Assembly (NCBI GenBank): GCA_016198755.1
Contig: JACQIB010000003.1
Location: forward strand, 6,767 to 70,766
Reading direction: 5' to 3'
Source of the DNA: Candidatus Aenigmatarchaeota archaeon
GTDB taxonomy: Archaea; Aenigmatarchaeota; Aenigmatarchaeia; Aenigmatarchaeales; JACQIB01
Length of the DNA: 64,000 nucleotides
Shown: piece by piece, positions 40,993-62,532 of the stretch
Position numbering within the stretch: position 1 is the stretch's first letter
How the letters are laid out: each line of letters begins with the position of its first letter
The notes under the pieces: model-generated
Database searches by the model: none
Told to the model about the DNA's origin: nothing
What the model saw: the letters and a program-made list of their open reading frames with translations, nothing else
Translations under genes and position numbers: made by a program

Positions 40993-41137
40993 TGGAGCCC
41001 CAGGCAGGATTTTCCACCCTTTTGGGGTTTGCAAAGACCTTTTAGGGAAAAGGGATTTGCTTTGAACCTGCGGCCTGCTGTTTACGAAATTCGGCAGCTT
41101 ATGCTTCAGCCACTCTACCGGTCTGAGCCACTGGGGC
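40993..41137 (-). tRNA. tRNA-Thr(CGT), two introns (30/31 and T-loop 59/60), CCA encoded, discriminator U
   Basis: Acceptor GCCCCAG/CTGGGGC, D arm GCTC-AGACCGGTA-GAGT. Removing a 17-nt intron (41090-41106; BHB helix TGGC:GCCG, bulges TGA/AAT) gives stem GCTGT/ACAGC and loop TTCGTAA (CGT at 41086-41084). T arm GCAGG-TTCAAA[51 nt, 41010-41060]T-CCTGC. 77+17+51=145. Confidence 0.75.
41010..41060 (-). repeat. T-loop intron family A, copy in tRNA-Thr
   Basis: GCAAATCCCTTTTCCCTAAAAGGTCTTTGCAAACCCCAAAAGGGTGGAAAA. 48 of 51 nt are identical to the copy in tRNA-Val(TAC). Confidence 0.85.
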
Positions 41138-41161
41138 AAGAATTGTTTTTATTCCAACCTT

Positions 41162-41698
41162 TTAAGCCTGAGCAAAGCGCACAGAAAACACGCTTCTGTT
41201 TACTGGTTTTCCGTCTATTTCTGTAACCTGCTCATAGCTTGTTTTCACTTCAGCTCCCTTCTTCCTTAAAAATCCAACAACAGTTTTAGTAGCAGCTTTG
41301 CTCCCAACTTTAAAATCTAGCCCACCCCTTACATCTTTCACAGTATAGAAAGAAAGCCTGTCTTTCTTTCCAATTCTATCTATTTCTTTTCCTGTGAACC
41401 TTGCAGTGGCAGGAGTAAAGTTTCCTCTCAACTGTATAACAGTCTCATAATAATGTGAAAGTCTTTTATTGCAGAAAATACAGACAAACTTTTTAGCTCC
41501 CGGAAGTCTCGTTTCAGAATACTTCCATTTCATCTTGTCTTTATAATAGCCGCAGCGTGTGCATTGTTCTATAACTTTTTCTTCTTTCTTTTTTTCCTCC
41601 GGCTCTTTAAAACAATCTTTACACAAGCCTTCCTTGAAAGGTTCTTTCCCGCAAACATAGCAAAACTGTCTTGACATAATCAAAAGATTTGCGTACAC
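41162..41698 (-). CDS. NMD3-family protein (ribosome biogenesis/export factor homolog)
   Basis: CxxC pairs (CYVCG, CKDC, CTRCG, CIFCN) followed by the ETVIQLRG pattern. The likely start is the ATG at 41677. Confidence 0.65.
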   Translation of the reverse strand: MYANLLIMSRQFCYVCGKEPFKEGLCKDCFKEPEEKKKEEKVIEQCTRCGYYKDKMKWKYSETRLPGAKKFVCIFCNKRLSHYYETVIQLRGNFTPATARFTGKEIDRIGKKDRLSFYTVKDVRGGLDFKVGSKAATKTVVGFLRKKGAEVKTSYEQVTEIDGKPVNRSVFSVRFAQA

Positions 41699-41730
41699 CT
41701 ATATAAACCATAAATAGAATATTAATTAGT

Positions 41731-43029
41731 ATGAAAAACCCAGTTTTCTTTTCCTTCATTCTAGTTTTGGCTATTCTGGTTGCAGGATGTACAGAACAGA
41801 CAACAGGAGAAACAACCACAACACTTAGAGGCACCACACTCCAGACTACAGTGTCTACATCAACTACTCTAGCGCCTTCAGCATACTGGGCTTTAGATGA
41901 ATTATCAGATGCTGCATGGACATATACACCAACAGCAGACAACGATTCAACTGCTCATTTGGACAGCTTTTCTGCTACAGCTGATGGAAAAACAGCTGCG
42001 GTAGCATGGCACACTGCAAACGGAGGCAGGGCAGGCCCAACAAAGCTGCTGCTCCTGAAAGACGGCAAAAAGACCTTGGAAAAGGATAATATAATATCTT
42101 ATGATCAGTCAGCTGTTTCTATATCTCCAGGAGGCTCTCTAATAGCATTATCTGATTCCAATTACATAACTTTTTATGACAGCTCTGGAAACAACATAAG
42201 CACTGTAAAATATTTTTTTGGTAGCAATGTCAGGGAATCACTGGAAGAACCACCCAGCATATCTTCAGATGAAAAGACGGCAACAATAAGTACACACGGC
42301 TCCAGCACAGATACATTGCAATATTTTACTAAGGGTTCTGGTGTTGTATGGAACAAGAAAGGTGACCTTGGTCCTGTTAGGATATCACCAGATGGGAAGC
42401 ATGTTATAGTTTTCAATAAACAGTATAATGTATTGAAGTATTATGACAGCTCAGGCAATGGGTTCTCCGCAGTAGAGCAGCGGCCTCTTCCATTTTACGA
42501 CGGTGGTGTTGCAGCCCTTCCGGTTTTTTCAAAGGATAGCTCGAAGATAGCAGCTTTCAATGGAAGACAACTTTACATGATAGATATTGTTTCAAAAACA
42601 CTTCTTTGGACAGCTGTGACAGAAGGGAATATTTCTTCTGTTTACATACTCCCGGATAATTCTGTTGCAGCTACTGACGGAAAATATGTATATAGTTTTG
42701 GAACAGATGGCGAACAGAAGTGGAAAGTTGACCCGAAGATAGAGGGTGGAATAAATAAAGTATATAAGGTGTTGTCTGACCCAACAGGCAAATATGTTGC
42801 ATTTACATCCATGAGCAAGGCTTCAGTTTTTGAGAATCATCTTATTTTCCTTGGGTTAGATGGAAAGTTTGTTAAGGGATACAAACTGATTAAAAAGGAT
42901 CCTTGGAGCGATAAATCTTCTACCTACAAAACCACAACACTCTCTCCAAGATTAGACGGTGTTTTTACCATAATTAACGACGGCGGAACAACACTCGAAG
43001 CTTACTTTTTCCCTTTTACAAAATCTTAA
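41731..43029 (+). CDS. Lipobox-bearing surface protein with beta-propeller-like repeats
   Basis: Signal plus LVAGC, Thr-rich linker, and repeated segments of about 40 aa with ...S.DG..... patterns. Confidence 0.5.
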   Translation: MKNPVFFSFILVLAILVAGCTEQTTGETTTTLRGTTLQTTVSTSTTLAPSAYWALDELSDAAWTYTPTADNDSTAHLDSFSATADGKTAAVAWHTANGGRAGPTKLLLLKDGKKTLEKDNIISYDQSAVSISPGGSLIALSDSNYITFYDSSGNNISTVKYFFGSNVRESLEEPPSISSDEKTATISTHGSSTDTLQYFTKGSGVVWNKKGDLGPVRISPDGKHVIVFNKQYNVLKYYDSSGNGFSAVEQRPLPFYDGGVAALPVFSKDSSKIAAFNGRQLYMIDIVSKTLLWTAVTEGNISSVYILPDNSVAATDGKYVYSFGTDGEQKWKVDPKIEGGINKVYKVLSDPTGKYVAFTSMSKASVFENHLIFLGLDGKFVKGYKLIKKDPWSDKSSTYKTTTLSPRLDGVFTIINDGGTTLEAYFFPFTKS

Positions 43030-43050
43030 TTGTAAATGTTTTGTCCAAGC

Positions 43051-43945
43051 CTATTTAACCCTTTCTTTTGAACCAAAATAACTGACCAGTAGAGCTGCGC
43101 CTATCATTATGCAGCCCCCAATAATCTCCTGCGGTAGCAACGTTTCCCCCAGAGCAATAATACCAATTGTTGTTGCTCCTATTGGAATCAGAGCTGTTGT
43201 TAATGTTGTAAACATATGTGCTGTTAAGTAGCGTGAAACTGTAACAGCTACAGCCCCCAGTCCAATAACAAGTACAAGTATCATGAAGGCAAAAGTACCT
43301 ATACTAATATGTATTTAATGGAGGTATGGCGAGCACCCCTAAAGCCAAAGCCGCAATTATTGTAGGTACAAGTATGAATACTGAATCAAGGAACATTATT
43401 TCTCTTGTTCCAAGTTTCTTTATGTATTTTCTGTTCACAATTGGCGTAAAGCTAAAAAGGAAAACACCCAAAATTATAAATAAATCCCCCCAACCCAATC
43501 CAGTTATACTTCCGCTCTTGAAAACTATTGCGCCTATAACAGCAAGCAAAGCAGCAACCCAGAGAATTTTTGAGGGAGTTTCTTTTAACAATCTTGAGGA
43601 GTAAAACCCCACAATAATCGGCATTGCAGAGATAAAAATTACAAAGGCTTTTACAGGCAGGTAAAGTATTGAAAAATCAAGCAAAAGATTGCCTACTGCA
43701 GCAGGTATAATAAGCATATAAAAATATTTTCTTTCCTTTTTCTCCAGAGCTAAAAAATTTTTAAGTTTGCCGCGCAGCAGAAAAATCAAAACAATAGAGC
43801 TTACAAGGAAAATGTATGTATCAATAGCCAAAGGATGCAGGGAACCAGTCAAAAACTTGAATGTTGGTACGTAAAATGACCTGAGGAGAATGAATATTGC
43901 AACCAACCAGAGTCCATAAGTAAACCCACTTCTGCCCGTTTTCAT
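43051..43945 (-). pseudogene. EamA/DMT transporter split by a frameshift (213-aa plus 77-aa pieces)
   Basis: The upstream piece ends ...PPLNTY-TAG. The downstream frame reads through the junction as SIGTFAFMILVLVIG, a continuous TM helix. The combined length of about 290 aa equals the intact paralog at 19091-19954. Confidence 0.5.
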
Positions 43946-43986
43946 AAAGTTAACAGATTCTCTGAGAATAAAAACCTGAGCAGTAA

Positions 43987-45639
43987 TTAGAACTCTTCGT
44001 GGTCGCCGCCATGGCCCATTCCTGGAGGCATTCCAGGTGGTCCGCCGCTCAGCCTGTTTGCTGTTATTATGTCATCTATCCTTAGTATCATTTCTGCTGC
44101 TTCAGAAGCAGAGCTTATTGCCTGTGTTTTTATTTTCAAAGGTTCTATTACACCTTCTTTCCACATATCAACTATTTTTCCTGTGAAAACATTCACTCCA
44201 GAAGTGTTCTGTCCCTTGTCATGTGCTGCTCTCAGTTCAACTAAAATATCTATTGGATCTAATCCAGCGTTCTCTGCTAAAGTTCTTGGTATAACTTCCA
44301 TTGCTTCTGAAAATGCTAAAATAGCAAGCTGCTCACGTCCAGAGTATTTCTGTGCAAAATCCCTTAAACCCTTTGCAACAGCCTCTTCAGGAGAACCCCC
44401 TCCAGCAACAACCTGCCCAACCTCTATAGATGAGGCAACTCCTCCTATAGCATCCTCAACTGCCCTGTAAACCTCTTCCACAACATGTTCTGTTCCACCC
44501 CTTACGAGCAGGGAAACAGCTTTCGGGTCTTTGCATTCTTTCACAAACAGCATCTGTTCTCCTGCCACCTTCTTCTCCTCAACTAACCCTGCAAATCCTA
44601 AATCATCCTTTCCCAAATCATCCAAACTTGTTACAATTCTGGCTCCAGTAGCCCTGACTAATTTTTCCATGTCAGATTTCTTTACTCTGCGTGCAGACAT
44701 AATTTTCTTCTTTGATAAGTAATGCTGTGCCACATCATCTATTCCCTTCTGGCAGAAAAGCACAGTGCACCCTGAATTTGCAATTTTCTCAACCATGTCT
44801 TTCAGCATCTTCTCTTCCTGTTCCAAAAACTTCTGCATCTGGTCAGGAGAAGTAATCTGTATCTGTGCATCAGTTTCAGTCTTTTCAATTTCCAAAGCTG
44901 TATCAACCAAGGCAACTTTTGCCCCCTTTACAGTTCTTGGCATCCCTGGGTGCACAATTTCCTTGTCAATTATAAGTCCGTTAACAAGTTCTGTATCCTC
45001 TATTGTCCCCCCCTGTTTCTTCTCAACTTTTATATTGTCTGTATCAATAGAAATTTTTCCATCCTGCCTGTCTATAACCATTTTTACTGCTTTCACAGCA
45101 AGTCCAGCCAAATGTTCTGAAGCACGTTCAGCAGATTTACCTGTCATTGCAGTTATTGCAATCTTTTTTAGGAGATCATCATCTTTTTCTGTTATTTTCT
45201 TTGAAACACTTTCAACCAGCTTTAAAGACTGTTCTTTTGCAAGTTTGTATCCTCTGGTTATAACAGTTGGGTGTATTTCTTGGTCTAAAAGCCCCTCAGC
45301 TCTCTTCAAAAGTTCACCTGCAAGTATCGCAGCTGTTGTTGTCCCATCCCCAACTTCCTCGTCCTGTGTCTTAGCAACCTCAACAACCATTTTTGCTGCT
45401 GGATGCTCTACCTGCATTTCCTCTAAAATTGTAACCCCATCATTTGTAATAACAATATCTCCCATGCTGTCTACTAGCATTTTGTCCATGCCCTTTGGCC
45501 CTAAAGTAGTTCTAACAGCGTCAGAAACAACCTTTGCAGCAGCAATATTCGTGTGCTGTGCATCCTTTCCCAGCGTTCTTAATGTTCCTTCTGGCAAAAC
45601 AAATATCTGCTGCCCCGCTCCACCCATTCCATTTGTCAT
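43987..45639 (-). CDS. ths: Thermosome subunit (group II chaperonin)
   Basis: [30 protein letters not shown]-terminal [14 protein letters not shown] tail. GAGGTGA Shine-Dalgarno upstream. Confidence 0.95.
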
Positions 45640-45797
45640 TCAAATCACCTCAAATATGTGTATTTAAGTATACCAGCTTTATGTGTATGTAGGTATATTT
45701 AAAGCTTATTGCTCTGCACATTTTTTGGCTGTTCCATGCTAACAGTTTTCCAGAAAAAAATGCAAACGGCGGTTACAATAAAAAATTTATGTCGAAC

Positions 45798-45813
45798 ATA
45801 AAGCTTATTAACC
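45798..45813 (+). promoter_or_regulatory. BRE/TATA-like element upstream of the 45834 gene
   Basis: ATAAAGCTTATTAACC, centred about 27 nt upstream of the ATG at 45834. Confidence 0.45.
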
Positions 45814-45833
45814 TGTTCTGCAGGGTTTAGAGC

Positions 45834-46292
45834 ATGGATATACCTGAAGACTATCTGAAACTTGAGAAAAAATACAAAGGACTGCCTGAATGGAAATGGC
45901 TTTCTACTAATTTTAGAGTAAAATTGGAAAATGGGGGATTAGTTGAACAGGTAAGGCACTCTGTTTCAGAAAAGCTGGACAATGTTTCCCACTCTCTTAT
46001 AGAGCCGATAATAGGGCCCGGGGAGAGTTATTGCTGCTGGTTTGAAAGGAAAATGATAACAGATACTGACAGGGACGAGCTTTTCAATATTTACAGGCAG
46101 CTGCAGGCTTTAATTTGGAGGTCAAACAAAATTTCCATAACAGAGAGCGAGAAGGATTTTGCTGAATGGCTTATCAGAGTAGAAAAAGAGTGGGAGGGAC
46201 TAAGGCCTGCGCTTGAAAAGTTTTGCATGAAGCTGGAGGAAGGCTGGTTAAAGTACAAGAAACCAATAGAGAGCACATCCTATCACGGTTAA
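45834..46292 (+). CDS. Hypothetical protein
   Basis: 152-aa ORF with a promoter-like element at the correct spacing. No motif recognised. Confidence 0.5.
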   Translation: MDIPEDYLKLEKKYKGLPEWKWLSTNFRVKLENGGLVEQVRHSVSEKLDNVSHSLIEPIIGPGESYCCWFERKMITDTDRDELFNIYRQLQALIWRSNKISITESEKDFAEWLIRVEKEWEGLRPALEKFCMKLEEGWLKYKKPIESTSYHG

Positions 46293-46316
46293 ATCCTTTT
46301 CCCATATAGAAAGCTT

Positions 46317-47012
46317 ATGAAAAGCAGAATACCTGCAGGCTTAAAGTATGCTGTTTTTGATTTAGATAATACTTTAGTTGAAGGAAGAGTTGCAAGCTAT
46401 ATTGGTAAAAGCTATTTTTTTAGAGAGTTATTTGGGCTCAGAATAGGTCATCTTTACAAAGGATGGAAAGGAATGAAAAGTGTTAAAGAAATTCTGAAAG
46501 AAGGCGGGGAAGATGCTGAAGCAAGGGGAATGGAAGCTTTTATGGGAGTTTTGGGGGAAACTAGAATTGCAACATGGGATAGTATATACGATTATGCAAA
46601 GAAGGCTGTAGAAAAACATGAATTGCCTGGGGCAAAGGAATTTGTAGGAAAATGTAAAAATAATGGACTTCAAACTTATATTGCCACTCTTGGGCTGCTT
46701 ATATCAGCGCAGGCAGCTAGGGATTATTTTGGCGCAGATGCTGCGCGCGGCAACTCGCTTATAGCTGAAAATGGAATAATTAGGGGAGTTAAGCTGACAA
46801 TGAAAACAGGTGAAGATAGGCTAAGAGAGGTAAGAACTATAGCAAATGTCAATGAGGCACTTGTTGTTGGAAACGATAGATTAGACTGGCCTTTGATGGA
46901 TGCTGCAGGTTTTTCTGTTGCAGCCCCGCTGGCAGATGAGGAAACTAAAAAAAGAGCTGACATTACTATTACAGATTTCAGGGAATTGGAGTTTGAGCCG
47001 CGCAAGGTTTGA
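46317..47012 (+). CDS. HAD-superfamily hydrolase (SerB/phosphoserine-phosphatase-like subfamily)
   Basis: Motif I AVFDLDNTLVEG; C-terminal VVGNDRLDWP (motif IV-like). Confidence 0.65.
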   Translation: MKSRIPAGLKYAVFDLDNTLVEGRVASYIGKSYFFRELFGLRIGHLYKGWKGMKSVKEILKEGGEDAEARGMEAFMGVLGETRIATWDSIYDYAKKAVEKHELPGAKEFVGKCKNNGLQTYIATLGLLISAQAARDYFGADAARGNSLIAENGIIRGVKLTMKTGEDRLREVRTIANVNEALVVGNDRLDWPLMDAAGFSVAAPLADEETKKRADITITDFRELEFEPRKV

Positions 47013-47023
47013 AAAAAAACAAG

Positions 47024-47230
47024 TGGTGGGCGGGAAGAGATTTGTTCAGCTTAGTCCTACCTGAGGGGGTAGGGCTGTAGGGGGAAACTTCCCCCTGAGC
47101 TTTGAACTCTCGGCCACCAGTTAACCTAAACTTTTCGGAACGCAGCCACGCTTTCACGCGAGTGCGCGATTATAAGACTGGCGCTCCAACCGGGCTTTGC
47201 CTTGGCTTTTGCCAAATGAGCTACCCGCCC
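47024..47230 (-). tRNA. tRNA-Ile(TAT), three introns (D-loop 14/15, anticodon 37/38, T-loop 58/59), CCA encoded
   Basis: Acceptor GGGCGGG/CCCGCCC. D arm GCTCA[21 nt, 47196-47216]GCCCGGTTG-GAGC. Anticodon stem CCAGT/ACTGG, loop CTTATA[48 nt, 47123-47170]A, with TAT at 47174-47172 and BHB helix CTTA:TAGG. T arm GAGAG-TTCAA[60 nt, 47042-47101]AT-CTCTT with BHB helix GTTC:GAAC. 78+21+48+60=207. Confidence 0.75.
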
Positions 47231-47267
47231 ACAAGTCTATTTATTCCTTGGAAGGGAATTTAAACTA

Positions 47268-48167: not shown

Positions 48168-48610
48168 ATATAAACCTTGGAAACCAAGCTAATACTGGGG
48201 TGGGGATAATGAAAAGGGCTGTAAAAGGACAATTAAAGCAGTTTGAAGTTTTGTTGGAAAACAGGACAGGTGCAATGGCAGATTTGACTGAGGCTTTGGC
48301 AAGGAATGCTGTAAATATCAAAGCCATATCAACGCATGCCAATGGACCACAAGGAAAGGTCTTGCTTGTAACTGAGGATGATATGACAGCACGCGAAGCT
48401 CTGGAAAAATCAAAACATAGTTTTGTTGTTTCAGATATTCTCTCATTAGAATTATCAGACAGGCCAGGTGAGCTTGCAAAGATTTCAAGATTGCTTGCAA
48501 AAGCAGGTGTAAACATGGAATCTGTATATATTTTAGGAAACAGGGATGGTTCAACAGAAGTTGCCCTTAAAGTGAGTGATATAGCAGCTGCTAAAAAGGT
48601 ATTTTCATGA
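48164..48610 (+). CDS. ACT-domain protein
   Basis: Two ACT-like beta-alpha-beta-beta-alpha-beta units (LENRTGAMADLTEALARNAVNIKAIS; LSDRPGELAKISRLLAKAGVNMESV). 4-nt overlaps with both neighbours. Confidence 0.65.
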   Translation: MNINLGNQANTGVGIMKRAVKGQLKQFEVLLENRTGAMADLTEALARNAVNIKAISTHANGPQGKVLLVTEDDMTAREALEKSKHSFVVSDILSLELSDRPGELAKISRLLAKAGVNMESVYILGNRDGSTEVALKVSDIAAAKKVFS

Positions 48611-48984
48611 GGCACTTTGAGGTTACAATATCAAATAAAAAGGGTGCTCTATCAGAACTTTGCGAAACTTTAGCTGCAGGTAATGTAAATATACGGGCTA
48701 TAGCAGCTGAAGGTGAGGGAAAGAAGGGAAAGCTAAAGTTTGTTGTAGATAATGATTCTCTGGCAAAGCAGGCATTGAAACATGGTGGATACAAGTTTGT
48801 AGAGCATGAGATTCTGCCTATAAAAATGCTGGACAAGCCAGGTGAGCTTGCCCGCGTGGCAAAAGCCCTTTCCCATTTGGGTATAAACATAGAGTCTCTC
48901 TATATTTTAGGAAAAGAAAACGGTCAGACTGAAGTGGCATTTAAAGTATCTGATTTGCAAAAGGCTAAGAGTATTTTCGGCTAA
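48607..48984 (+). CDS. ACT-domain protein (paralog)
   Basis: ISNKKGALSELCETLAAGNVNIRAIAA and LDKPGELARVAKALSHLGINIESL. Confidence 0.65.
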   Translation: MRHFEVTISNKKGALSELCETLAAGNVNIRAIAAEGEGKKGKLKFVVDNDSLAKQALKHGGYKFVEHEILPIKMLDKPGELARVAKALSHLGINIESLYILGKENGQTEVAFKVSDLQKAKSIFG

Positions 48985-49022
48985 GTAGAAGACTTTTATT
49001 CTTTCTCTGCACAGATTTCTGC

Positions 49023-49182
49023 GGGCCGGTGGTCTAGTCCGGTATGACATCACCCTGACAGCAGTCAAACCATTATGTTTGTCTTGCGGAACGGTGGGAG
49101 TCGCAGGTTCAAAGGAGGAGAAACTACGTATCTCCCTCCACCCTCTCCCTTTGAGGGGCTGAAAATCCTGCCCGGCCCACCA
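49023..49182 (+). tRNA. tRNA-Val(GAC), two introns (37/38 and T-loop 59/60), CCA encoded
   Basis: Acceptor GGGCCGG/CCGGCCC. Anticodon stem TCACC/GGTGG, loop CTGACA[31 nt, 49061-49091]C, with GAC at 49057-49059. T arm GCAGG-TTCAAA[52 nt, 49114-49165]T-CCTGC with BHB helix TTCA:TGAA and bulges AAG/AAT. 77+31+52=160. Confidence 0.8.
49114..49165 (+). repeat. T-loop intron family B, copy in tRNA-Val(GAC)
   Basis: GGAGGAGAAACTACGTATCTCCCTCCACCCTCTCCCTTTGAGGGGCTGAAAA. 52 of 52 nt are identical to the copy in tRNA-Gly. Confidence 0.9.
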
Positions 49183-54388: not shown

Positions 54389-54399
54389 CTATAAAACCC

Positions 54400-56988
54400 T
54401 TACTGTGCAGGTGCCCTCTCAAGAGCCAGCTCAGCTCCTGTTATTGTGTTCTCAAACTGGTAGTCAAGATTTGCTGTTATAAGGTCTTTCTTTATGTTGG
54501 TTCCTTCCGGATACCTTATCTGGAGCACAACCTGCCCAATCTGTCCTGAATCCAAATCCTTCAAATTGTAGACTAGTTCTATATTTCCTGCTTTCAATGA
54601 ACTTGGTGAAGAAGCACTTTTCAATTCTGCTTTATCTGTTCTTACCTCAGTATAAGCAACTCCTTCAAATCCAAGTGTTGGAATAAATATATACAGTTTT
54701 CCATCTGTTATTTTTCCAGTTTTTTCCTTAAAATTGTTCCTTACATTTACAGTAACCAGCGTTTCCTCTCCATACCCAACAGGCTGTTGCGCAATGTTCA
54801 TATCTATTCCCACAGGCCCACCGCTGTACTTGCTGTCAGGCTTTAATTCTGCAGCAGTAAGTTTTTTATCCAGTATAAGTTGCTCCCTGTCAGATGGGCT
54901 AACAACTGTTATTGGCAGCGAAGCATTCGCAAAATAATCAAACCCATACGTTGCCTTTGCCCTTACAAGCCAGCCACCCATTTTATATCCAATTGCTCTA
55001 TACTCGAGCCCAAAATCATCCCTTAGAATAGTGCACTGCTCATTTGTTCCAGGGAAGTTTTTGTTTTCCAGCACATCTTTACAAGCTCCCTCACTGCCAA
55101 TAGGCTTTATTGTATCTGGTTTAACCTTTTTCTTTGTTTCTGTGCCAATTGTAACTGGCTCAGTATCACCCTTAAGGCAAACACAAGTATTCAGTTCCCT
55201 TCCAAGTGTTTTATCAGAACTCTCAAACCTAAAGTTCAAAATCCTTGTTTCCCCTTTCTGGAAAGGCAACTCCCATGTACACCCTCCATTTCCATCCTTC
55301 TTGAATAATTTTCCACCTCCACATGAGGTAAAGTTTCCAACAACCCCATCCAGCTTATTTTCAGCTCCAGCAGTTCCAGACTTTATACTTGTTTTTATCG
55401 GGTCTATAGCTATAATGTTCTCCAAATTAATTCCCACTCTTCTAATTGGAAAGTCCCCCTCATTCTTCAGCTGAAGACTTCCAACCAAAGGCTGCGTTGG
55501 ATCTATTGTAGTGGCAGCTTGTATAATGTTCATTTTCGCTGTCAATGCTTTATCAGACCCCTCTTTCTTCTGCGCCTTCCCGCATGGGTTCTGTTTTTTG
55601 TGCACTTCACATAGCACAGGATTTGCAGCGCAGTAAAACAGCTCATTTGTCTGGCAGCTTGTATCAGATATAATATCGCTAATAGGGTTCGCAACCACAC
55701 TCATTGCAGCATACACCTGCGGCCAATAGTCACCAAACACAGCATTTCCAACAGTTCCTGTTTGTGCAAAAGTGAAGGCAAGTATAGCGAAAACCATGAC
55801 TATAATTCCTATATATGGCCTTGCAGACCTGTCAGATATAGCCCCAACAATTATAGAAAATAGCATTACAATTCCTAGAGCAATCTGCACAGTTCCGGTA
55901 CCGCTCAATAAGGAAGATACGACAGGCAGCGCACCGAATGAAGCAAATCCAACAAACATTATAGATCCAGCTATTTTCCAGTTGTTGTGAACATCTTCAT
56001 CATTTAGAGCATCGTGTATAGATTTGCCTCCCACAAAGTTAATGGTGATTTTCAATGGTGCAATTACCTTACCATCTTTATCTCTTTCTATGTTCCTCGT
56101 TGGCATAACAACATAAAATGCTGTTGTAAGGAAGAACAAAGATAATGAAGGGTTCGCATCTTTAACAAAACCAAATATCACAAATAAGAGTACTATTACT
56201 ACAATAGATACGATACCCACATAACCATTTTTAGTAAGTGTAGTTATTGCCGATAAAGCAAATACTATAAGTATTGCTATTGGAATTAGTATCAAGTTGT
56301 TTCCCAAAGTGCCCCCCGAAAAAACAATCAATATTAAGATTGCCATTACAAAACCAAAGAACATCCTTGCCCAGGACTGTATTGCTTTGTAAGGCTCTGT
56401 AACTTCATAGCTCCCTGGAAGAGAGAAGTATGTAATAAAAAATACAACTATCGAAAGTATTGGGTGAATATAGTAAGTACCCCATCCTATAAACGAAGCA
56501 GCCAAAAGCTTCATGAATCCTCTCAGATAAAGGAAACCTAAATGTTCTGATCCAAGAGTCATTTTTGTAGTTACAAGTGTGTCAGGCGGTATCAGGGTGC
56601 CGCAATCATGACAGTGTTTTGCCATTTCTTCATTATCTGCATTGCAATAACTACAAATTTTTCCCCTTGGTTTTTGTTGTATAACATCATTTTCATCTGG
56701 GAGTAGAATAACAAACGCAAAAATTATTACACCTATGCCTATTAGAGCATATCCAAAAATAATAGCTACAACACCGCCTATAAGAAATATGACAAGTTCA
56801 AGTGCCCTTCTCTTCAATTTATCAGAAATCAGTTTTCCATGTTCTATTGCTTTTGGGCTTACATTACCATCTTCATATTGTTTTGTTCTCTCTCGCTGTA
56901 GAGTCAGGTCTGCTTTACATGCAGCATTAGGGCACACAGCAACTACGCCATTATTTGGTGTCCCACAAATAGTACAACTATGAGTCAT
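54400..56988 (-). CDS. Polytopic membrane protein with two N-terminal zinc ribbons and a large C-terminal extracytoplasmic region carrying the same beta-rich modules
   Basis: CTICG...CPNAAC and CSYCN...CHDCG. About 10-12 TM helices. A Cys-rich segment is followed by modules ending AKATYGFDYFANASLPITV and ANLDYQFENTITGAELAL. Confidence 0.65.
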   Translation of the reverse strand: MTHSCTICGTPNNGVVAVCPNAACKADLTLQRERTKQYEDGNVSPKAIEHGKLISDKLKRRALELVIFLIGGVVAIIFGYALIGIGVIIFAFVILLPDENDVIQQKPRGKICSYCNADNEEMAKHCHDCGTLIPPDTLVTTKMTLGSEHLGFLYLRGFMKLLAASFIGWGTYYIHPILSIVVFFITYFSLPGSYEVTEPYKAIQSWARMFFGFVMAILILIVFSGGTLGNNLILIPIAILIVFALSAITTLTKNGYVGIVSIVVIVLLFVIFGFVKDANPSLSLFFLTTAFYVVMPTRNIERDKDGKVIAPLKITINFVGGKSIHDALNDEDVHNNWKIAGSIMFVGFASFGALPVVSSLLSGTGTVQIALGIVMLFSIIVGAISDRSARPYIGIIVMVFAILAFTFAQTGTVGNAVFGDYWPQVYAAMSVVANPISDIISDTSCQTNELFYCAANPVLCEVHKKQNPCGKAQKKEGSDKALTAKMNIIQAATTIDPTQPLVGSLQLKNEGDFPIRRVGINLENIIAIDPIKTSIKSGTAGAENKLDGVVGNFTSCGGGKLFKKDGNGGCTWELPFQKGETRILNFRFESSDKTLGRELNTCVCLKGDTEPVTIGTETKKKVKPDTIKPIGSEGACKDVLENKNFPGTNEQCTILRDDFGLEYRAIGYKMGGWLVRAKATYGFDYFANASLPITVVSPSDREQLILDKKLTAAELKPDSKYSGGPVGIDMNIAQQPVGYGEETLVTVNVRNNFKEKTGKITDGKLYIFIPTLGFEGVAYTEVRTDKAELKSASSPSSLKAGNIELVYNLKDLDSGQIGQVVLQIRYPEGTNIKKDLITANLDYQFENTITGAELALERAPAQ

Positions 56989-57047
56989 CTTAAATCATCT
57001 ACAAAACTCTTAGGAGTGCAAGAACAAAAACCTTTGCTTTAGGGGAT

Positions 57048-57767
57048 TTATGCTATCTGGAGGAAGGCTATTTTGAAGAGGGAGTCTGAGGCTGGCAGGA
57101 GTTGGAGCTTGTTTTTCTTCTCTATTGGGATTTGCAGGAAAATGCTTCCTTCAGGTTCCCCTTCGAAAATTGTTTTCCCGTTTAGTATAACCTTCAGTTC
57201 CCCGAAGTTCTTTTCAAAAGCAATTTCAATGCTCTTTTTTCCGGTTTTCTTTGCCTCAAATTCTTTTATATAGGCCTTTCCTTTGAGCCCATGAACTTCA
57301 GCTGAAACAGAGTATTTGTTCTCTTCCCATGGGAGAAAAGCCCCGCCAGCTTTTATTTCAATTATATTGTTCTCCCCGATAAGCTTTGGATCCAGTTCAA
57401 AATCCATTCTGCTTGCATTTGGATACCCTCTATAAACTTCCAGCCCATTCAGGGAAATAATAACCTGTCCCTGTTTGTTTCCTGAAAGGGAAATAATCCT
57501 TAAAACAGCCCTGTCAAATTCCCCGCCAGCAAACCTCTTTTCAATTGTTCCACTCTTGAACAAACTACTGTTCACATCGCCTGAAACTGTTATAAGTTCT
57601 TTGTCCACAGCGCTCAATTCAAAATCATCCTCAAGCAAAACTCTATCATATAGGGGCTTTGCAACAAAAAAACCAGTACTCGGAAGAGTTAAAGACCAGG
57701 CTGCAAGAAGTATTACTAATCCTATTATTGCCACTAAAATAAACTGGGTAGTGAAAAAGCTTGCCAT
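57048..57767 (-). CDS. Single-TM anchored extracytoplasmic protein (first gene of the surface cluster)
   Basis: The start at 57767 (MASFFTTQFILVAIIGLVILLAAW) avoids overlap with pelota. The ORF track extends it to 57833. Confidence 0.55.
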   Translation of the reverse strand: MASFFTTQFILVAIIGLVILLAAWSLTLPSTGFFVAKPLYDRVLLEDDFELSAVDKELITVSGDVNSSLFKSGTIEKRFAGGEFDRAVLRIISLSGNKQGQVIISLNGLEVYRGYPNASRMDFELDPKLIGENNIIEIKAGGAFLPWEENKYSVSAEVHGLKGKAYIKEFEAKKTGKKSIEIAFEKNFGELKVILNGKTIFEGEPEGSIFLQIPIEKKNKLQLLPASDSLFKIAFLQIA

Positions 57768-57804
57768 AGGCAGGCTTTTATTAGTAAACTTTAAATATAC
57801 CTCT

Positions 57805-58809
57805 ATGAAGTCAGCATTTGACCTGAAAAACAACCTAGGAAAGATAACTCCACAGAGTATGGACGATCTCTATGTTTTGTTAGATATACTGATTCCTGGT
57901 TGTTTGGTTAAAGCCAAAACAGTAAGGGTTGCTGAGGTTAGAAGGGGGGAGGAAAAGGAGAGGGTTAGAAAGGAAATGGTTCTGCTGAAAATTAAAGTAG
58001 AGAAAATAGAGCTTGCACAGGATCTAAGATTAGGGGGAAAAATTGTTGAATCACCCCCAGAAGTAGAGCACAGCTACCATACAATAGAGGTTGAACCCTT
58101 TACCTATATAGAAGTTGAAAAAGAATGGAAAAAATGGGAAATTGACAAGATAAAGGCTGCAGCAAAGAAAACAGAGCCTGTTTTAGCTTTAATTCTGGAT
58201 GAGAGTGAGGCTGATTTGTTTTTAGTAAAGGACCGCACAGAGCATGTTTTGCACCTGAAAGGCCCAGGAACTGGAAAAAGCCTTGGGTTAAAGGGTGGTA
58301 AACAGGAATACTATAACGAGATTATTGGGATTTTGAAAAAGAGACCTGAAAGACATATCGTTCTGGCTGGTCCAGGGTTTGCAAAGGATGAGCTAAAGAA
58401 CATTCTAAGGGAAAAGGAAAAGGAGCTATTTTCTAAATTGACAGTGGAAAGGGTTTATGAGACAGAGGAAGCCGGGCTTTCTGAACTGTTGGATAAAGGG
58501 ATTTTACAGAGGCTTTTGAAAACCTCAAGAATAGAGGAAGAAACAGAAGCTGTAAAGCTGTTAATGGAACAGATAGCAAGGAAAGGGAAAGCTGTTTATG
58601 GTATTGCTGAGACTGAAAGGGCTTTGGAAGCTGGGGCTGTGGAAAAGCTGTTAATAGCTGACAAGAATGTTAGGAAATTTGAAAAACTGCTGGAAAAGGC
58701 TGAAAAAACAGGTGCTGAAGTAATGATTATTTCCTCTGCCCATCCAGCAGGGGAGAGGTTTGCTGGACTGGGTGGAATAGGGGGATTGTTAAGGTATAGG
58801 ATAGAGTGA
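57805..58809 (+). CDS. pelA: Pelota (Dom34) ribosome rescue factor
   Basis: MKSAFDLKNNLGKITPQSMDDLYVLLDIL... followed by eRF1-like domains 2 and 3. The ORF-track extension to 57475 is antisense to the neighbouring gene. A TATA-like TTTTATTAGTAAAC/TTTAAATATA lies just upstream. Confidence 0.9.
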   Translation: MKSAFDLKNNLGKITPQSMDDLYVLLDILIPGCLVKAKTVRVAEVRRGEEKERVRKEMVLLKIKVEKIELAQDLRLGGKIVESPPEVEHSYHTIEVEPFTYIEVEKEWKKWEIDKIKAAAKKTEPVLALILDESEADLFLVKDRTEHVLHLKGPGTGKSLGLKGGKQEYYNEIIGILKKRPERHIVLAGPGFAKDELKNILREKEKELFSKLTVERVYETEEAGLSELLDKGILQRLLKTSRIEEETEAVKLLMEQIARKGKAVYGIAETERALEAGAVEKLLIADKNVRKFEKLLEKAEKTGAEVMIISSAHPAGERFAGLGGIGGLLRYRIE

Positions 58810-58842
58810 GGTTTATATACTACTAAAAGGTAGTTATATATA

Positions 58843-60063
58843 ATGGTTCCGGATGATTTTAACATGCGCACAGCTATGGCTGCGGCAGAAAGGCTTAAAC
58901 AGACCTATAGAGGGAGGCTTGTTGTTAATCCAAGTACTGTTAGAAATGCTGTTGAAGGAGTCGGATCTACTAAAAGTTTATATGCAGCTCCCGAAATCAT
59001 TGAGGGAGATATAATACCTGCTGTTTATGGTGCTGTTATAGGAGACCCGGCAAATTCCGGTTTGATAGCAGAAATTTCACAATCTGTTGAGCGTGCACAC
59101 GATATAGCACAAAAAAGATCCAGAATAGCTGCAAAGGATTTTGGAGTTAAATCAAGGAGACCTGCAACACAAATAATGTATGAAAGTCCCGGAGGTAATG
59201 GAATGGCATACGATTTTTCCCTTGATAGGATTTTTGTTCCTGTTCCAATGGCTTTGGCTGAAGAGCCAAAAATAGTAGAGAGTTTCGTCGAGGAGGATAC
59301 CCACGCATATACAAAGGACAGGGCTCCCAGTCTTTTCGAGTCTCTTGGATTAAATCAAAGAACAAACCAACCCAAGGACATTGCTGTACTTTTTCCACTT
59401 TTTGTTATAGAGGGTATAGGACAACTGTATGCTCACGCCGATGATTATCCTGATAACAAAAGAGCTGTAAGGAAAGTGGGTGAGGGGAATGTTGATTTTA
59501 TTAGGCAGGCACAGTCAAGTCCGTATGTTGGCGGTTTTTTGGTTATGGATACAATGAAAAGGGCACATGGAAGGAGGAAAGCTGTTAATAGAGCTATAGA
59601 TATTGATTCACCGGAAGAGTTCTTGAGAGAGTATGGTCTGGCATGCAAAAGATTGAAGGAGCCTGCCATAAATCTTTGGGATGGGCTTGGCGAAACATTA
59701 TATCAGGAAACAGCGAGGAGAAAGGCAGAGCAGATTAGGCAGCTTTTGGAGGTTGGAGAAAAAAGTCGGATTGAGAGGTTTTTGGCAGTGAATGACTTGC
59801 TTGGTAAGATAAGACAAGGATTGAATAATCCAGGAGAATTGCCGCAAAGCGAGAGAAGGGAAGCTCTGGCAACTTTGAATGGCATTGGAAGTGTAGAAGG
59901 AGTATTATATCATGTTTTTGATGATGCTGTATTGCATAATGCAACTTTCTCACAAAAGTTGTGGAGCAGGGCATGTGGTTTTCTGTTAGATAAGTATGAA
60001 GGATTGAAAGAACAGACAAATCCATTACCCACCCCAAGGCAGCCTGTTCTAGTGCTGCAATAA
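58843..60063 (+). CDS. Hypothetical protein (406 aa)
   Basis: Long ORF with no recognised motif. By eye its codons look more GC-rich than flanking genes. Confidence 0.45.
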   Translation: MVPDDFNMRTAMAAAERLKQTYRGRLVVNPSTVRNAVEGVGSTKSLYAAPEIIEGDIIPAVYGAVIGDPANSGLIAEISQSVERAHDIAQKRSRIAAKDFGVKSRRPATQIMYESPGGNGMAYDFSLDRIFVPVPMALAEEPKIVESFVEEDTHAYTKDRAPSLFESLGLNQRTNQPKDIAVLFPLFVIEGIGQLYAHADDYPDNKRAVRKVGEGNVDFIRQAQSSPYVGGFLVMDTMKRAHGRRKAVNRAIDIDSPEEFLREYGLACKRLKEPAINLWDGLGETLYQETARRKAEQIRQLLEVGEKSRIERFLAVNDLLGKIRQGLNNPGELPQSERREALATLNGIGSVEGVLYHVFDDAVLHNATFSQKLWSRACGFLLDKYEGLKEQTNPLPTPRQPVLVLQ

Positions 60064-60531
60064 CCTTCTATTTTCTTCCAATACAACGACTATATCTCTC
60101 TCTTTCTCCCCAGAAACCTCAAATTCTTTAACAATATCAAATCCGGTTGGCTTTAGCTTTTCCAGCCTAGAGCTGAAAATAGAAATCACAGCCTTTCCTT
60201 CAGGTTTCAGAACCCTTTTCAGTTCTTTCCAGAACTCTAGTGAAAGCAAATGTATTGTATCCATGCAGAAAATCCAGTCTGCTCCCCCGCTTTTAAAGGG
60301 AAGGCTGTTCCCATCTCCAAGAATTCTGTTGCCTTCAAATTCCTTCAGATGTTTCAGAGAGCTGTCCAAAGCAATACAGTCTATATACCTCTCCAGAAAA
60401 CCAGGTCCAGAGCCTATATCCAGAACAGTTCCATGCACATCTCCCAGCTTAGAGAGCAGCTGCTCTATTTTTTTGCATTGTTCAGCTTCCATTGCTTTGC
60501 TGTATATTGCTTCTGTTAACATTCTTATCAC
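60049..60531 (-). CDS. Class I SAM-dependent methyltransferase (small)
   Basis: Motif I VLDIGSGPGFLE; post-I acidic residue; 160 aa. Confidence 0.7.
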   Translation of the reverse strand: MIRMLTEAIYSKAMEAEQCKKIEQLLSKLGDVHGTVLDIGSGPGFLERYIDCIALDSSLKHLKEFEGNRILGDGNSLPFKSGGADWIFCMDTIHLLSLEFWKELKRVLKPEGKAVISIFSSRLEKLKPTGFDIVKEFEVSGEKERDIVVVLEENRRLLQH

Positions 60532-60536
60532 GCAGT

Positions 60537-61001
60537 TTACTTAATTCCAAGCTGTTTATCTAAAGGCAGATTTGAAAAATATGTTCTGACATCGGATTTT
60601 ATGTCCACTAATTCAATTATTTCAATATCTTTTCTAACTATCAGGCTAAACCCTTTTTGAGACAAATATTTTGATTTAAATTCAGAGTAATTCGAGACAG
60701 TGAAATCAGCATCTCCCAATTCAGGTCTTGATTTATCTGGTTTTCGTATTTTCAGCAATTCAAGTTTGCCTGCTACTGTATTTATAGGCTCGATATGGAA
60801 AATTGGACCTGTAGGAGTCTCCTTAGAGATATTTCCAATTTTCTCCAAAGTTGATATAAGATTGTTGTATTGTTTATTGCTCTGACAAAAAATACATGCG
60901 TAATTAACCTGCGCTTTTTTCTCGTTCGTATATTTATTTTTCAGGTTGTTTGCTTTTTCCACAATTTCCTGAACAAAACTTTTTAATTCCTCTGTTTTCA
61001 T
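60537..61001 (-). CDS. Hypothetical protein (154 aa)
   Basis: ORF in a notably AT-rich stretch adjacent to tRNA-Ala. No motif recognised. Confidence 0.45.
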   Translation of the reverse strand: MKTEELKSFVQEIVEKANNLKNKYTNEKKAQVNYACIFCQSNKQYNNLISTLEKIGNISKETPTGPIFHIEPINTVAGKLELLKIRKPDKSRPELGDADFTVSNYSEFKSKYLSQKGFSLIVRKDIEIIELVDIKSDVRTYFSNLPLDKQLGIK

Positions 61002-61017
61002 TTGCTTACACCGAGAT

Positions 61018-61105
61018 TGGTGGACTCGGGGGGATTTGAACCCCCGATCTCATGCATGCCATGTGCAATTATTATGCACGCGTCATTCCGCTAGACCACG
61101 AGCCC
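61018..61105 (-). tRNA. tRNA-Ala(GGC), one 13-nt intron in the anticodon loop (33/34), CCA encoded
   Basis: Acceptor GGGCTCG/CGAGTCC with the G3:U70 Ala identity pair. Anticodon stem CGTGC/GCATG. Loop AT[13 nt, 61061-61073]GGCAT with BHB helix GTGC:GCAC, GGC at 61060-61058. T arm GGGGG-TTCAAAT-CCCCC. 75+13=88. Confidence 0.7.
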
Positions 61106-61727
61106 TATGGTGATTTTTAAGGAATCCTATAGCCTTTTTAGCTTTGTAAGGATTTAAAAACCCTATAGTCGAAGAGAATCTTGCTAGCTGTCCAAAACCA
61201 TATAATCTAAGATAGTATAACGGTTTTCCATTATTCATAGATTTTGTTACTCTCCCTTTCATACCAAGACTATTTACTACTGCTTCTAAAGAATGTATAA
61301 GATTGGTGCTCCTAGAATCCAAATTTATTGTTGGATAATTTCTATTTTTTCTAGAATGTACACTACCATCAGTATCAAAGACTCCTCTTGTAAATGCTAT
61401 TTCTAATTTTATCTTACCTATTATCTCATCAGGCATAGATACAGTGAATGTCTTTGGACTTTTGAGGCGCATCATCTCTAGAATTTTACAAAGTTCCTTT
61501 GAGCCAAAATACGCTCGGAAAGCTTTTATACCACTGGATTCTGGGATCAAACTAGGCGTCTTGTTAAATAATCTTTCGATTAATGGTACATAAACATCTC
61601 GTAAAAACTTGTAATCAGAAGTTTTGACTTCTATTGTTCTATCACCCACATATCCATCACCGGCAATTATGCCTAAAAAATATGCGAAATCTTCAGTAAT
61701 TTTCATAATAATAACTACTCGTTTCAA
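61083..61727 (-). CDS. Free-standing LAGLIDADG homing endonuclease (double-motif)
   Basis: Two LAGLIDADG motifs: YFLGIIAGDGYV and FTRGVFDTDGSV. The likely start is at 61706. The last 23 nt, including the TGA stop, lie inside the 5' part of tRNA-Ala. Confidence 0.85.
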   Translation of the reverse strand: MKRVVIIMKITEDFAYFLGIIAGDGYVGDRTIEVKTSDYKFLRDVYVPLIERLFNKTPSLIPESSGIKAFRAYFGSKELCKILEMMRLKSPKTFTVSMPDEIIGKIKLEIAFTRGVFDTDGSVHSRKNRNYPTINLDSRSTNLIHSLEAVVNSLGMKGRVTKSMNNGKPLYYLRLYGFGQLARFSSTIGFLNPYKAKKAIGFLKNHHRARGLAE

Positions 61728-61796
61728 TATTAATTTTTAACTCAATCTTTAATATAATGCCAATAAAACGCCCTAAGCATAGATAATAATTAAAAC

Positions 61797-61966
61797 TGGT
61801 GGGCCGGGCAGGATTTTCAGCCCTTTTGGGGTTTGCAAAGACCTTTTCGGGAAAAGGGATTTGCTTTGAACCTGCGACTCCCACCTTTCCGTCCGCTTCG
61901 TGTGCTGAACCCTCAACACTGTTGCGGATGTAAGGGTGATGTCATACCGGACTAGACCACCGGCCC
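61797..61966 (-). tRNA. tRNA-Val(TAC), two introns (37/38 and T-loop 59/60), CCA encoded
   Basis: Exons are identical to tRNA-Val(GAC) except positions 34 and 38. Loop CTTACA[42 nt, 61887-61928]A, with TAC at 61932-61930. T arm GCAGG-TTCAAA[51 nt, 61814-61864]T-CCTGC. 77+42+51=170. Confidence 0.8.
61814..61864 (-). repeat. T-loop intron family A, copy in tRNA-Val(TAC)
   Basis: GCAAATCCCTTTTCCCGAAAAGGTCTTTGCAAACCCCAAAAGGGCTGAAAA. Confidence 0.85.
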
Positions 61967-61968
61967 GT

Positions 61969-62379
61969 TTAGAGCTTTCCCTTCCAAGCATTTAAAATCA
62001 CATTCTTGTGCTTTCTGAGAAAAGCCTTCTCAGCAGGGTACGAGTTAATTTTAACAGCTTTCTCAAAAACAAACCATTTTGGCTTGTCAGAGTCATGTGG
62101 TTTAAGGATTTTGTTCTGGGTTCTGAAAAGATAGATATGTATAATTTTCATTTTAGTTTTAATTGAATTCATTCTTCTAACAACACCCAAAAACTTAACA
62201 AGCTCCAAACCCCTTAATCCTGTTTCTTCCCTAATTTCTCTCCTAGCCCCAGCAAGGAAAGTCTCTCCCTTCCTTTTTCCACCCTGCGGCAGCTGCCAAT
62301 CCCTTCCATCTGGACAAAAACAGAGAACAATTTTTCCCTCTCTGGAAACAACCCCACCGCAGGTTATCCTGTTTTTCAT
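61969..62379 (-). CDS. NUDIX hydrolase
   Basis: Nudix box GGKRKGETFLAGARREIREETGL. The real start is MKNRITCGGVV at 62379. The ORF-track extension to 62508 is a read-through of tRNA-Gly. Confidence 0.8.
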   Translation of the reverse strand: MKNRITCGGVVSREGKIVLCFCPDGRDWQLPQGGKRKGETFLAGARREIREETGLRGLELVKFLGVVRRMNSIKTKMKIIHIYLFRTQNKILKPHDSDKPKWFVFEKAVKINSYPAEKAFLRKHKNVILNAWKGKL

Positions 62380-62388
62380 AAAACCAAC

Positions 62389-62532
62389 TGGTGCGCCCGA
62401 CGGGATTTTCAGCCCCTCAAAGGGAGAGGGTGGAGGGAGATACGTAGTTTCTCCTCCTTTGAACCCGTGTCGTAAGCTTTTTCTGCGGAAATCGCATGGG
62501 AAGCTCAAATCCTACCACTAGACTACGGACGC
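62389..62532 (-). tRNA. tRNA-Gly(CCC), two introns (37/38 and T-loop 59/60), CCA encoded
   Basis: Acceptor GCGTCCG/CGGGCGC. Anticodon stem TGAGC/GCTTA, loop TTCCCA[18 nt, 62479-62496]A, with CCC at 62500-62498. T arm ACGGG-TTCAAA[52 nt, 62406-62457]T-CCCGT. 74+18+52=144. Confidence 0.8.
62406..62457 (-). repeat. T-loop intron family B, copy in tRNA-Gly(CCC)
   Basis: Its reverse complement is identical to 49114-49165. Confidence 0.9.

Follow-up and report, generated by a model that had tools for sequence, protein, structure and literature searches.

Short introns in the T loops of transfer RNA (tRNA) genes have moved between tRNAs of different specificity in an uncultivated DPANN archaeon, a member of Candidatus Aenigmarchaeota. 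The 64-kilobase (kb) stretch of its DNA analysed here (the window, taken from contig JACQIB010000003.1) carries tRNA genes that are interrupted at T-loop position 59/60 by members of three intron families, A, B and C. An earlier reading of the letters alone (the sequence-only reading) had suggested that such families pass between non-cognate tRNAs, and this is borne out: exon and intron identities are incongruent, orthologous genes hold introns of different families, and outgroups have no intron at the site. We put at about 60% the probability that these are endonuclease-spliced introns specialised for the T loop, which have been copied among unrelated tRNA genes and have replaced each other there within one clade of Aenigmarchaeota, the copying likely taking place at the level of DNA.

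T-loop introns and their tRNA hosts

Eight tRNA genes, each with an encoded CCA, were located in the window by a scan for paired acceptor and T stems (Table 1). They contain 16 introns, and an intron at T-loop position 59/60 is present in five of the eight. When the introns are removed in silico, ARAGORN recovers canonical tRNAs with the expected anticodons from all eight genes and from six genes of relatives. Excision therefore restores a canonical cloverleaf, which is the behaviour of introns of the bulge-helix-bulge (BHB) type.

The sequence-only reading had reported that the 51-nucleotide (nt) T-loop introns of Thr(CGT) and Val(TAC) agree at 48 of 51 positions, and the 52-nt introns of Val(GAC) and Gly(CCC) at all 52. 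Rereading the sequence and BLAST gave the same figures. The three mismatches between the family-A copies are at intron positions 17, 45 and 46. A repeat search recovers both pairs: 40990-41072 with 61794-61876 (83 nt, 90%), and 49106-49182 with 62389-62465 (77 nt, 95%, complementary). The only other long repeats in the 64 kb are a coding tandem duplication (48434-48954) and the 5' halves of the two Val tRNAs. Resemblance between introns, among all 16 of the window, is restricted to those in T loops. The Rfam tRNA model places a 53-nt insert in the T loop of Gly(CCC), after GGUUCAAA; the insertion point is uncertain by 1-2 nt in either direction because of a run of A. Two further statements about these introns hold in part. 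The T stems of the hosts differ in the family-B pair (GCAGG and ACGGG), but the T arms of the family-A pair are identical (GCAGG/CCTGC). A common 3' end was described for the introns; the Thr copy ends in GGTGGAAAA and not in GCTGAAAA, and what stands is the pairing of an intron (U)GAA with the T loop. Rfam finds no known RNA family within the T-loop introns. A C/D-box guide RNA, with the GCUGA end as its D box, was considered and rejected, there being no C box (RUGAUGA) on reading; the CUGA at the 3' end of some introns is explained by pairing to UUCA(G), and hence is not a D box.

Related contigs were retrieved through the proteins encoded next to the tRNA genes. They come from two relatives, R1 (GCA_053536735.1) and R2 (ENA contigs), whose nucleotide identities to the window are about 80% and about 86%, and from Ca. 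Aenigmarchaeum subterraneum (about 73%). A homologue search with the AdoMet decarboxylase encoded beside Gly(CCC) gave back that protein alone, and the Gly/Val(TAC)/Ala cluster was compared on contigs L038 and L040 from a metagenome scan. Exon and intron identities do not run in parallel. Within the window, Val(TAC) and Val(GAC) have exons that are 97% identical and T-loop introns that are 52% identical, whereas Val(GAC) and Gly(CCC) have exons at 65% and introns at 100%, and Thr and Val(TAC) have exons at 66% and introns at 94%. Between the window and R1, the exons of Thr(CGT) are 100% identical and its intron at 30/31 agrees at 16 of 17 positions, whereas the T-loop introns are 53% identical; that of R1 is a relative of family B (88% identical to B) and that of the window belongs to family A. 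The orthologs of Val(GAC) hold family B in the window, its relative B' in R1 and family A in R2. At the Ile(TAT) locus the T loop holds family C in the window, family C with a 50-nt insertion in R2, and no intron in R1. The insertion in the R2 Ile(TAT) intron (L029 4244-4353, minus strand; also on L030 and L031) consists of two hairpins placed between the two hairpins of family C, an arrangement of sequence that shows growth by nested insertion.

Copies in the same genome are identical (52/52 for family B in the window, 42/42 for B' in R1), while B and B' are about 88% identical. At the sequence level, identity within genomes together with divergence between them is a signature of recent copying or of concerted evolution. 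The earlier suggestion that family B is undergoing very recent spread or active homogenisation agrees with this pattern. In the outgroups (A. subterraneum L026, L042, L044) the T loops of Val, Ile, Ala and Gly have no intron. Because the more distant Aenigmarchaeota are without them, the T-loop introns are read as a gain in one sub-clade.

Family A has the widest range of hosts. When a 24-nt core of family A was searched against JGI metagenome contigs, seven contigs matched, all from two related datasets; each match lies within the T loop of a tRNA, always at the same position, and further copies were found on those contigs. Counted with the window and R2, they give at least nine hosts: Thr(CGT), Thr(TGT), Val(TAC), Val(GAC), Gly(CCC), Asp(GTC), Gln(TTG), His(GTG) and Ala. 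Aligned, the family-A copies show T stems that vary with covariation, a near-invariant stretch over the first 44 nt of the intron, and a modular 3' part. The insertion follows TTC(A/G)AA and precedes the TC of the T stem in all copies. Mosaic introns, in which the 5' module is common and the 3' module is different, are seen on comparing Thr with Val(GAC) in R1, and Thr with Gly on contig L040. That any T loop may serve as a landing site, as had been proposed, is supported by the presence of family A in at least nine tRNA species.

Near-invariance of the family-A module across species has a P of about 0.01 under a neutral identity of 86%. As proof of selection or of horizontal transfer it is weakened by some orthologous introns outside the T loop, which are equally conserved (94-98%). 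On contig L040, from another species, the T-loop intron of tRNA-Ala(GGC) (14405-14552, plus strand) differs little from that of the adjoining Val(TAC), with a compensatory change of C:G to T:A in a hairpin. The bases after this intron, TCTTGC, correspond to the Val T-stem strand and not to the CCCCC of Ala, and the stored sequence stops there; this could be exon co-conversion or an end effect of the assembly.

In profile searches of 262 kb (the window and related loci), strong copies were confined to T loops, apart from two cases. One is a 37-nt fragment resembling family C on contig L041 (2537-2573, minus strand), outside any tRNA, which matches the 5' part of the family-C (Ile) intron at about 87% identity (nhmmer E=1.8e-5). 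The other is a module similar to family A; its tRNA context is truncated where the contig ends. A scan of genome contigs with the pattern GGTTCAAAGN{30,55}GGCTGAAAATCC gave 19 matches, of which two are archaeal, both by chance in non-tRNA DNA, and the other 17 bacterial; the pattern is too specific in that it demands the end GGCTGAAAA.

These searches bear on the idea that the introns are scars of integration: one virus or plasmid would have entered many tRNA genes in their 3' part and then been lost by deletion, with the same remnant remaining in each. The 3' halves of tRNA genes are classic integration sites, the fragment on L041 lies in intergenic DNA, and intron gain by way of an integrating element has been proposed for Caldiarchaeum (PMC3293823). 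The boundaries of the copies, however, are identical to the nucleotide and a splice-competent fold is kept in every copy; no copy has an integrase beside it or a duplicated 3' half of the tRNA. In IMG/VR viral contigs the cores of A, B and C have 0 matches, which leaves a viral origin unsupported. We regard integration scars as a very improbable source of the families.

The identical copies are unlikely to be artefacts of assembly, a possibility for which the sequence-only reading had left room. The Thr copy of family A is identical in the independent Logan contigs L001 and L002, and the 3' part of the Val(TAC) copy in Logan contigs L045-47. In every tRNA gene the 5' and 3' acceptor strands match across the repeat. 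The pattern of shared introns reappears in at least four independent datasets, including assemblies of related species. For an artefact, or for vertical inheritance under strong conservation, it can be said that the Logan k=31 contigs stop at tRNA repeats, that the family-B copies are without independent contig support, and that introns outside the T loop can be as conserved as noted above. Set against this are the matched acceptor halves, the independent confirmation of the Thr copy and of part of the Val(TAC) copy, and the agreement of the datasets; vertical descent, for its part, cannot give intron-free outgroups and different families at orthologous loci. This explanation we find hardly credible. 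The k=31 contigs also break within the Val(TAC) family-A intron (61836, the start of L045-L047) and within the Ile family-C intron (47080-47085, the ends of L001, L003 and L004 and the start of L033). These breakpoints are not accounted for by the repeats known in the window, and may reflect extra copies elsewhere in the genome or strain variants.

Predicted splice motif and the splicing endonuclease

The T arms of the intron-bearing genes fold in a consistent way. In 13-14 of the 15 T arms folded, the minimum-energy structure combines the T stem, a UUC(A):(U)GAA helix, an AAU bulge and two or three intron hairpins. The T stem has 5 base pairs (bp), and the helix between U54-U55-C56(-A57) and the (U)GAA at the 3' end of the intron is stacked directly on top of it. 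On the 3' side is a 3-nt bulge, A-A-U60. On the 5' side, A58-A59 is followed immediately by the first of the intron hairpins. The 3' half of the fold is thus a textbook bulge-helix arrangement.

The strict hBHBh' motif, with two 3-nt bulges, a 4-bp helix and flanking helices, is not formed. The strand 5' of UGAA is not engaged in a continuous h' helix, and the 5' site is a stretch of 2-3 nt at a multi-helix junction. The folds do have the outer helix, the single canonical bulge and the central helix of 3-4 bp of the relaxed hBH/BHL motif, R1 Val(GAC) being the exception. Because the 5' site lies at a helix junction, the motif is classed as relaxed hBH/BHL and not as strict BHB. The earlier description of the intron 3' end as docking on the T loop to form a BHB helix is accordingly correct for the UUCA:UGAA helix and for the bulge between AA and U, and not for the class of motif. 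Hairpin 1 of family B has a double compensatory change in a sister species (GG..CC to TA..TA), and the outer hairpin pairs covary in a divergent copy of family A. To judge from these substitutions, the intron hairpins are under structural constraint.

Two tandem genes of the window encode paralogs of the tRNA splicing endonuclease (EndA). Paralog 1 retains the Tyr and His of the catalytic site; ahead of the His it has a Lys/Arg-rich loop (KPLKRGPKSAGEH), 6 amino acids longer than in paralog 2. Paralog 2 has Thr at the position of the catalytic His, and because this His is lost it is probably a structural subunit. Two-subunit enzymes and loops of this kind are associated with the cutting of relaxed motifs (PMC3239211, PMC5829648). 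The pair looks like a lineage-specific duplication of the alpha/beta type. Among solved structures, paralog 1 matches best the alpha subunit of Nanoarchaeum equitans, in which a similar loop is found. The pair resembles the (alpha-beta)2 endonuclease of N. equitans (PDB 3IEY) in having a Lys-rich insertion before the catalytic His and a partner without that His. It differs from the N. equitans enzyme in that the paralogs of the window share 45% identity, that the Lys of the triad is unaligned and that the heteromer is a prediction. The 45% identity of the paralogs suggests that the duplication in the window is separate from, and more recent than, that of N. equitans.

Proposed routes of intron copying

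In the reading that we favour, the T stem of the host would serve as the outer helix, and the host would thus supply half of the splice motif. U54-U55-C56(-A57) would pair with the 3' (U)GAA of the intron in a central helix of 3-4 bp. The 3' splice site would lie within the 3-nt bulge, between A-A and U60, and the 5' site between A58-A59 and the next nucleotide, at the junction with two intron hairpins. A relaxed hBH/BHL motif of this kind would need an endonuclease of broad specificity, for which the two-gene, alpha/beta-like EndA of the window is the candidate. Because G53-UUCAAAU-C61 is nearly universal, any tRNA would be a compatible recipient. The copying step itself would most likely be ectopic gene conversion of short tracts between tRNA genes, at the DNA level, seeded on the conserved T arm. 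Ectopic conversion would also homogenise copies in the same genome and yield mosaic introns. A DNA-level process is favoured by the homogenised copies, by the mosaics with only the 5' module in common, and by the whole T arm that is common to Thr, Val(TAC) and Val(GAC).

Several observations weigh against this reading. Outside the intron, the identity of the family-B pair extends only over GG-TTCAAA...T-CC, about 8 + 3 nt. Flanks of this length are very short for homologous recombination, and an RNA-level or site-specific route would fit them at least as well. Splicing from the transcript is a prediction from modelled folds and encoded genes. The two-gene EndA is a likely candidate for a broad-specificity enzyme acting on the T-loop introns, its cleavage and specificity being predicted from sequence; in a phmmer alignment the catalytic Lys of M. 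jannaschii EndA has no Lys counterpart in either paralog. The Val(GAC) gene of R1 (L028 6153-6286, plus strand) has a B' intron that ends in GAGGAGAG and not in GGTTGAAAA; it has no UGAA, and may be a decaying copy or a pseudogene. The family-C-like fragment on L041 lies in promoter-like intergenic DNA, with a TATA-like box and the start of a gene immediately downstream. Finally, the evidence comes from metagenome assemblies that hold fragments of each genome, and the number of copies per genome and of copies outside tRNAs is sampled from those fragments.

Transposition at the RNA level would account for some of these points. The excised, often circular, intron would pair its UGAA with the UUCA of another T loop, be inserted by the reversed action of endonuclease and ligase, and reach the genome through reverse transcription and recombination. 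In agreement with this, insertion is always at one exact T-loop position in at least nine hosts with different T stems, family-B identity runs no more than 2 nt beyond the T loop and includes no co-converted T-stem bases, and the docking helix is present in the predicted folds. Neither the 64 kb nor the related loci show a reverse transcriptase or retro-element, however. Mosaics with breakpoints inside the intron fit DNA recombination more easily, a swap of families where the site is already occupied goes beyond simple insertion, and a review of the field prefers a DNA-level process (PMC4090602). On balance an RNA-level route seems unlikely, though not negligibly so.

We are more doubtful still that the near-invariant 44-nt hairpin module of family A, which occurs in at least nine tRNA species and in several species-level lineages, is an autonomous, selfish element copied by a dedicated route of its own, as distinct from passive gene conversion. 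Two such routes are conceivable, reverse splicing into the universal T loop, or the action in trans of LAGLIDADG enzymes encoded beside tRNA genes. If the module is such an element, this would be the first system in which the mechanism of archaeal tRNA intron transposition could be pinned down, and from very recent events.

LAGLIDADG genes are indeed found next to tRNA genes. The one in the window is free-standing and runs over the 5' end of tRNA-Ala with its last 23 nt. A second free-standing gene with a double motif, on contig L040 (13441-14151, plus strand), lies directly 5' of tRNA-Val(TAC) in another species and in a different spacer. Both genes run into the first 15-23 nt of the tRNA, and both tRNAs begin with GGGCYSGTGGTCTAG. 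The two proteins are 26% identical, and a look-up of homologues of the LAGLIDADG protein found the same locus only. The gene in the window is an insertion, since the orthologs of Val(TAC) and Ala on contig L038 are 3 nt apart without such a gene.

These enzymes raise the prospect of endonuclease-assisted spread, or collaborative homing, in which free-standing LAGLIDADG enzymes cut the DNA of tRNA genes and repair of the break copies in the intron of another tRNA gene. A precedent exists in archaeal ribosomal RNA (rRNA) introns of the BHB type, which are mobilised by LAGLIDADG homing endonucleases (I-DmoI, I-PorI and related enzymes) and are demonstrably mobile. The T-loop introns share with them BHB-type splicing and a neighbourhood that contains LAGLIDADG genes, and these genes abut tRNA genes in two species and in different spacers, with that of the window a recognisable insertion relative to L038. 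There are also differences. T-loop introns are 46-110 nt long and have no open reading frame, and are thus without an enzyme encoded in the intron; the LAGLIDADG genes are intergenic, in spacers 5' of tRNAs. Their position at tRNA 5' ends, and not in T loops, suggests that the 5' ends are their own targets. At the Val(GAC) and Ile loci of R1 and R2, no LAGLIDADG gene is seen beside the intron copies, and the presence of the enzyme is not tied to the family of the intron. Spread assisted by these enzymes is therefore judged improbable.

Relation to known systems and further features of the window

Transposition of tRNA introns was proposed for Thermoproteales by Fujishima et al. 2010, as reported in PMC4090602, PMC4033280 and, as late as 2023, PMC10714607. 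The transposing groups, as these accounts have them, are marked by intron identity above 70% in distinct tRNAs, by a single position at which the host supplies the splice motif, and by a late gain with a history incongruent with exons and species. All of this is found here: intron identity is 94% in family A and 100% in family B, with exons at 66% and 65%; the position and the host-supplied motif are the same in all copies; and the gain is late and incongruent. On that description the Thermoproteales groups, like those of the window, consist of short, highly similar BHB-type introns in distinct tRNA genes, at one non-canonical position that must supply the splice motif, gained late in one lineage. 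Their hosts have a two-subunit endonuclease of broad specificity, and the window has a two-gene EndA for which such specificity is predicted. The two also differ. The host here is an aenigmarchaeotal DPANN archaeon of about 40% GC and not a hyperthermophilic crenarchaeon; sharing is confined to T-loop position 59/60; families are swapped at occupied orthologous sites; and family A combines a near-invariant 44-nt 5' module with variable 3' modules. As far as these accounts allow a comparison, the T-loop families belong with transposing introns of the Thermoproteales type, "transposition" here also covering DNA-level conversion and homogenisation. The phenomenon as such had thus been proposed already for Thermoproteales, and what is new relative to those accounts is the phylum, the restriction to the T loop, the replacement at occupied orthologous sites and the cassette-like family A.

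Disrupted tRNA genes and unusual endonucleases are already known from DPANN archaea (PMC5829648, PMC3239211). No report of transposing tRNA introns in Aenigmarchaeota or other DPANN lineages was found in the literature searched. The closest single case is the intron at 59/60 in pre-tRNA-Cys(GCA) of ARMAN-2 (Micrarchaeum), which has a relaxed hBH/BHL motif and is cut in vitro by an epsilon2 endonuclease (PMC3239211). Site, class of motif and DPANN host are the same as here. The ARMAN-2 intron differs in being 13 nt long and in occurring in a single gene, with no family common to several tRNAs reported, and its enzyme is a three-unit epsilon2 protein, whereas the window has two separate paralogous genes. 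The gain of an intron in tRNA-Thr(GGU) of Caldiarchaeum subterraneum resembles the present case as a polymorphism of populations or species over a short time (PMC3293823). There, however, a 1.8-kb element encoding a recombinase and a displaced tRNA fragment are involved (PMC3293823), and nothing similar flanks copies of the window type.

Since the 2010 inference for Thermoproteales, the way in which introns of archaeal tRNA genes come to occupy non-canonical positions has been a standing question (PMC4090602, PMC10714607). The present clade catches the process very recently and in a distant phylum, with copies at 100% identity, swaps of families and differences in presence and absence, all at one defined site. 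It also offers a compact system for work on the mechanism, made up of a minihelix of the T arm, an intron about 50 nt long and the endonuclease whose two genes lie in the same window. The interest of the case lies in this combination of very recent events with a compact substrate and enzyme.

The host of the window was placed by its proteins and has a GC content of about 40%. The thermosome (43987-45639, minus strand) is 100% identical to a protein of an Aenigmarchaeota metagenome-assembled genome at NCBI, and its close homologues are all from Aenigmarchaeota. Archaeal genes for topoisomerase VI, eIF-1A and NMD3 are nearby in the window.

Routine tools recover few of the tRNA genes. ARAGORN finds one of the eight on the raw window, with Ala(GGC) miscalled as Tyr(ata); Rfam finds four of the eight at the gathering score, and five with permissive settings. 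As routine finders overlook most tRNA genes of the window, the tRNA complements of DPANN genomes of this type are likely under-called in standard annotation.

Table 1. Coordinates of T-loop introns, tRNA genes and enzyme genes in the window.
Feature	Position	Strand	Remarks
Family-A T-loop intron, Thr(CGT) copy, 51 nt	41010..41060	-	3' end GGTGGAAAA; BLAST
Family-A T-loop intron, Val(TAC) copy, 51 nt	61814..61864	-	3' end GCTGAAAA
Family-B T-loop intron, Val(GAC) copy, 52 nt	49114..49165	+	BLAST, 100% over 52 nt to Gly copy
Family-B T-loop intron, Gly(CCC) copy, 52 nt	62406..62457	-	BLAST, fold
Family-C T-loop intron, Ile(TAT), 60 nt	47041..47100	-	two hairpins; 3' end GCTGAACAAA
tRNA-Arg(TCT)	18168..18292	+	two introns, none in T loop
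tRNA-Phe(GAA)	32962..33090	-	two introns (29/30, variable region), none in T loop
tRNA-Thr(CGT) with CCA	40993..41137	-	17-nt intron at 30/31 (41090-41106); family-A T-loop intron
tRNA-Ile(TAT)	47024..47230	-	three introns: D loop, anticodon loop, T loop
tRNA-Val(GAC)	49023..49182	+	canonical intron 49061-49091; family-B T-loop intron; exons 97% identical to Val(TAC)
tRNA-Ala(GGC)	61018..61105	-	G3:U70; 13-nt intron at about 31/32; no T-loop intron
tRNA-Val(TAC)	61797..61966	-	canonical 37/38 intron 61887-61928; family-A T-loop intron
tRNA-Gly(CCC)	62389..62532	-	18-nt anticodon-loop intron; family-B T-loop intron; T stem ACGGG/CCCGT
tRNA splicing endonuclease paralog 1, 178 amino acids	30982..31518	-	Pfam PF01974 and PF02778; best PDB match 3IEY_A, E=9e-29
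tRNA splicing endonuclease paralog 2, 173 amino acids	31520..32041	-	45% identical to paralog 1; catalytic His replaced (AETVKW)
Free-standing double-motif LAGLIDADG endonuclease gene	61083..61706	-	between Val(TAC) and Ala(GGC); Pfam LAGLIDADG_3, PDB 1DQ3

The anticodon TAT (UAU) on a tRNA-Ile is uncommon among archaea. A tRNA-Ile(TAT) is also found in R1, R2, A. subterraneum and contigs L042/L043. Between the thermosome and NMD3, the window has a segment of about 2.2 kb (41731-43945) without counterpart in R1 (compared with L024 1939-1975), which holds an EamA transporter, a small open reading frame and a gene for a 432-amino-acid protein.

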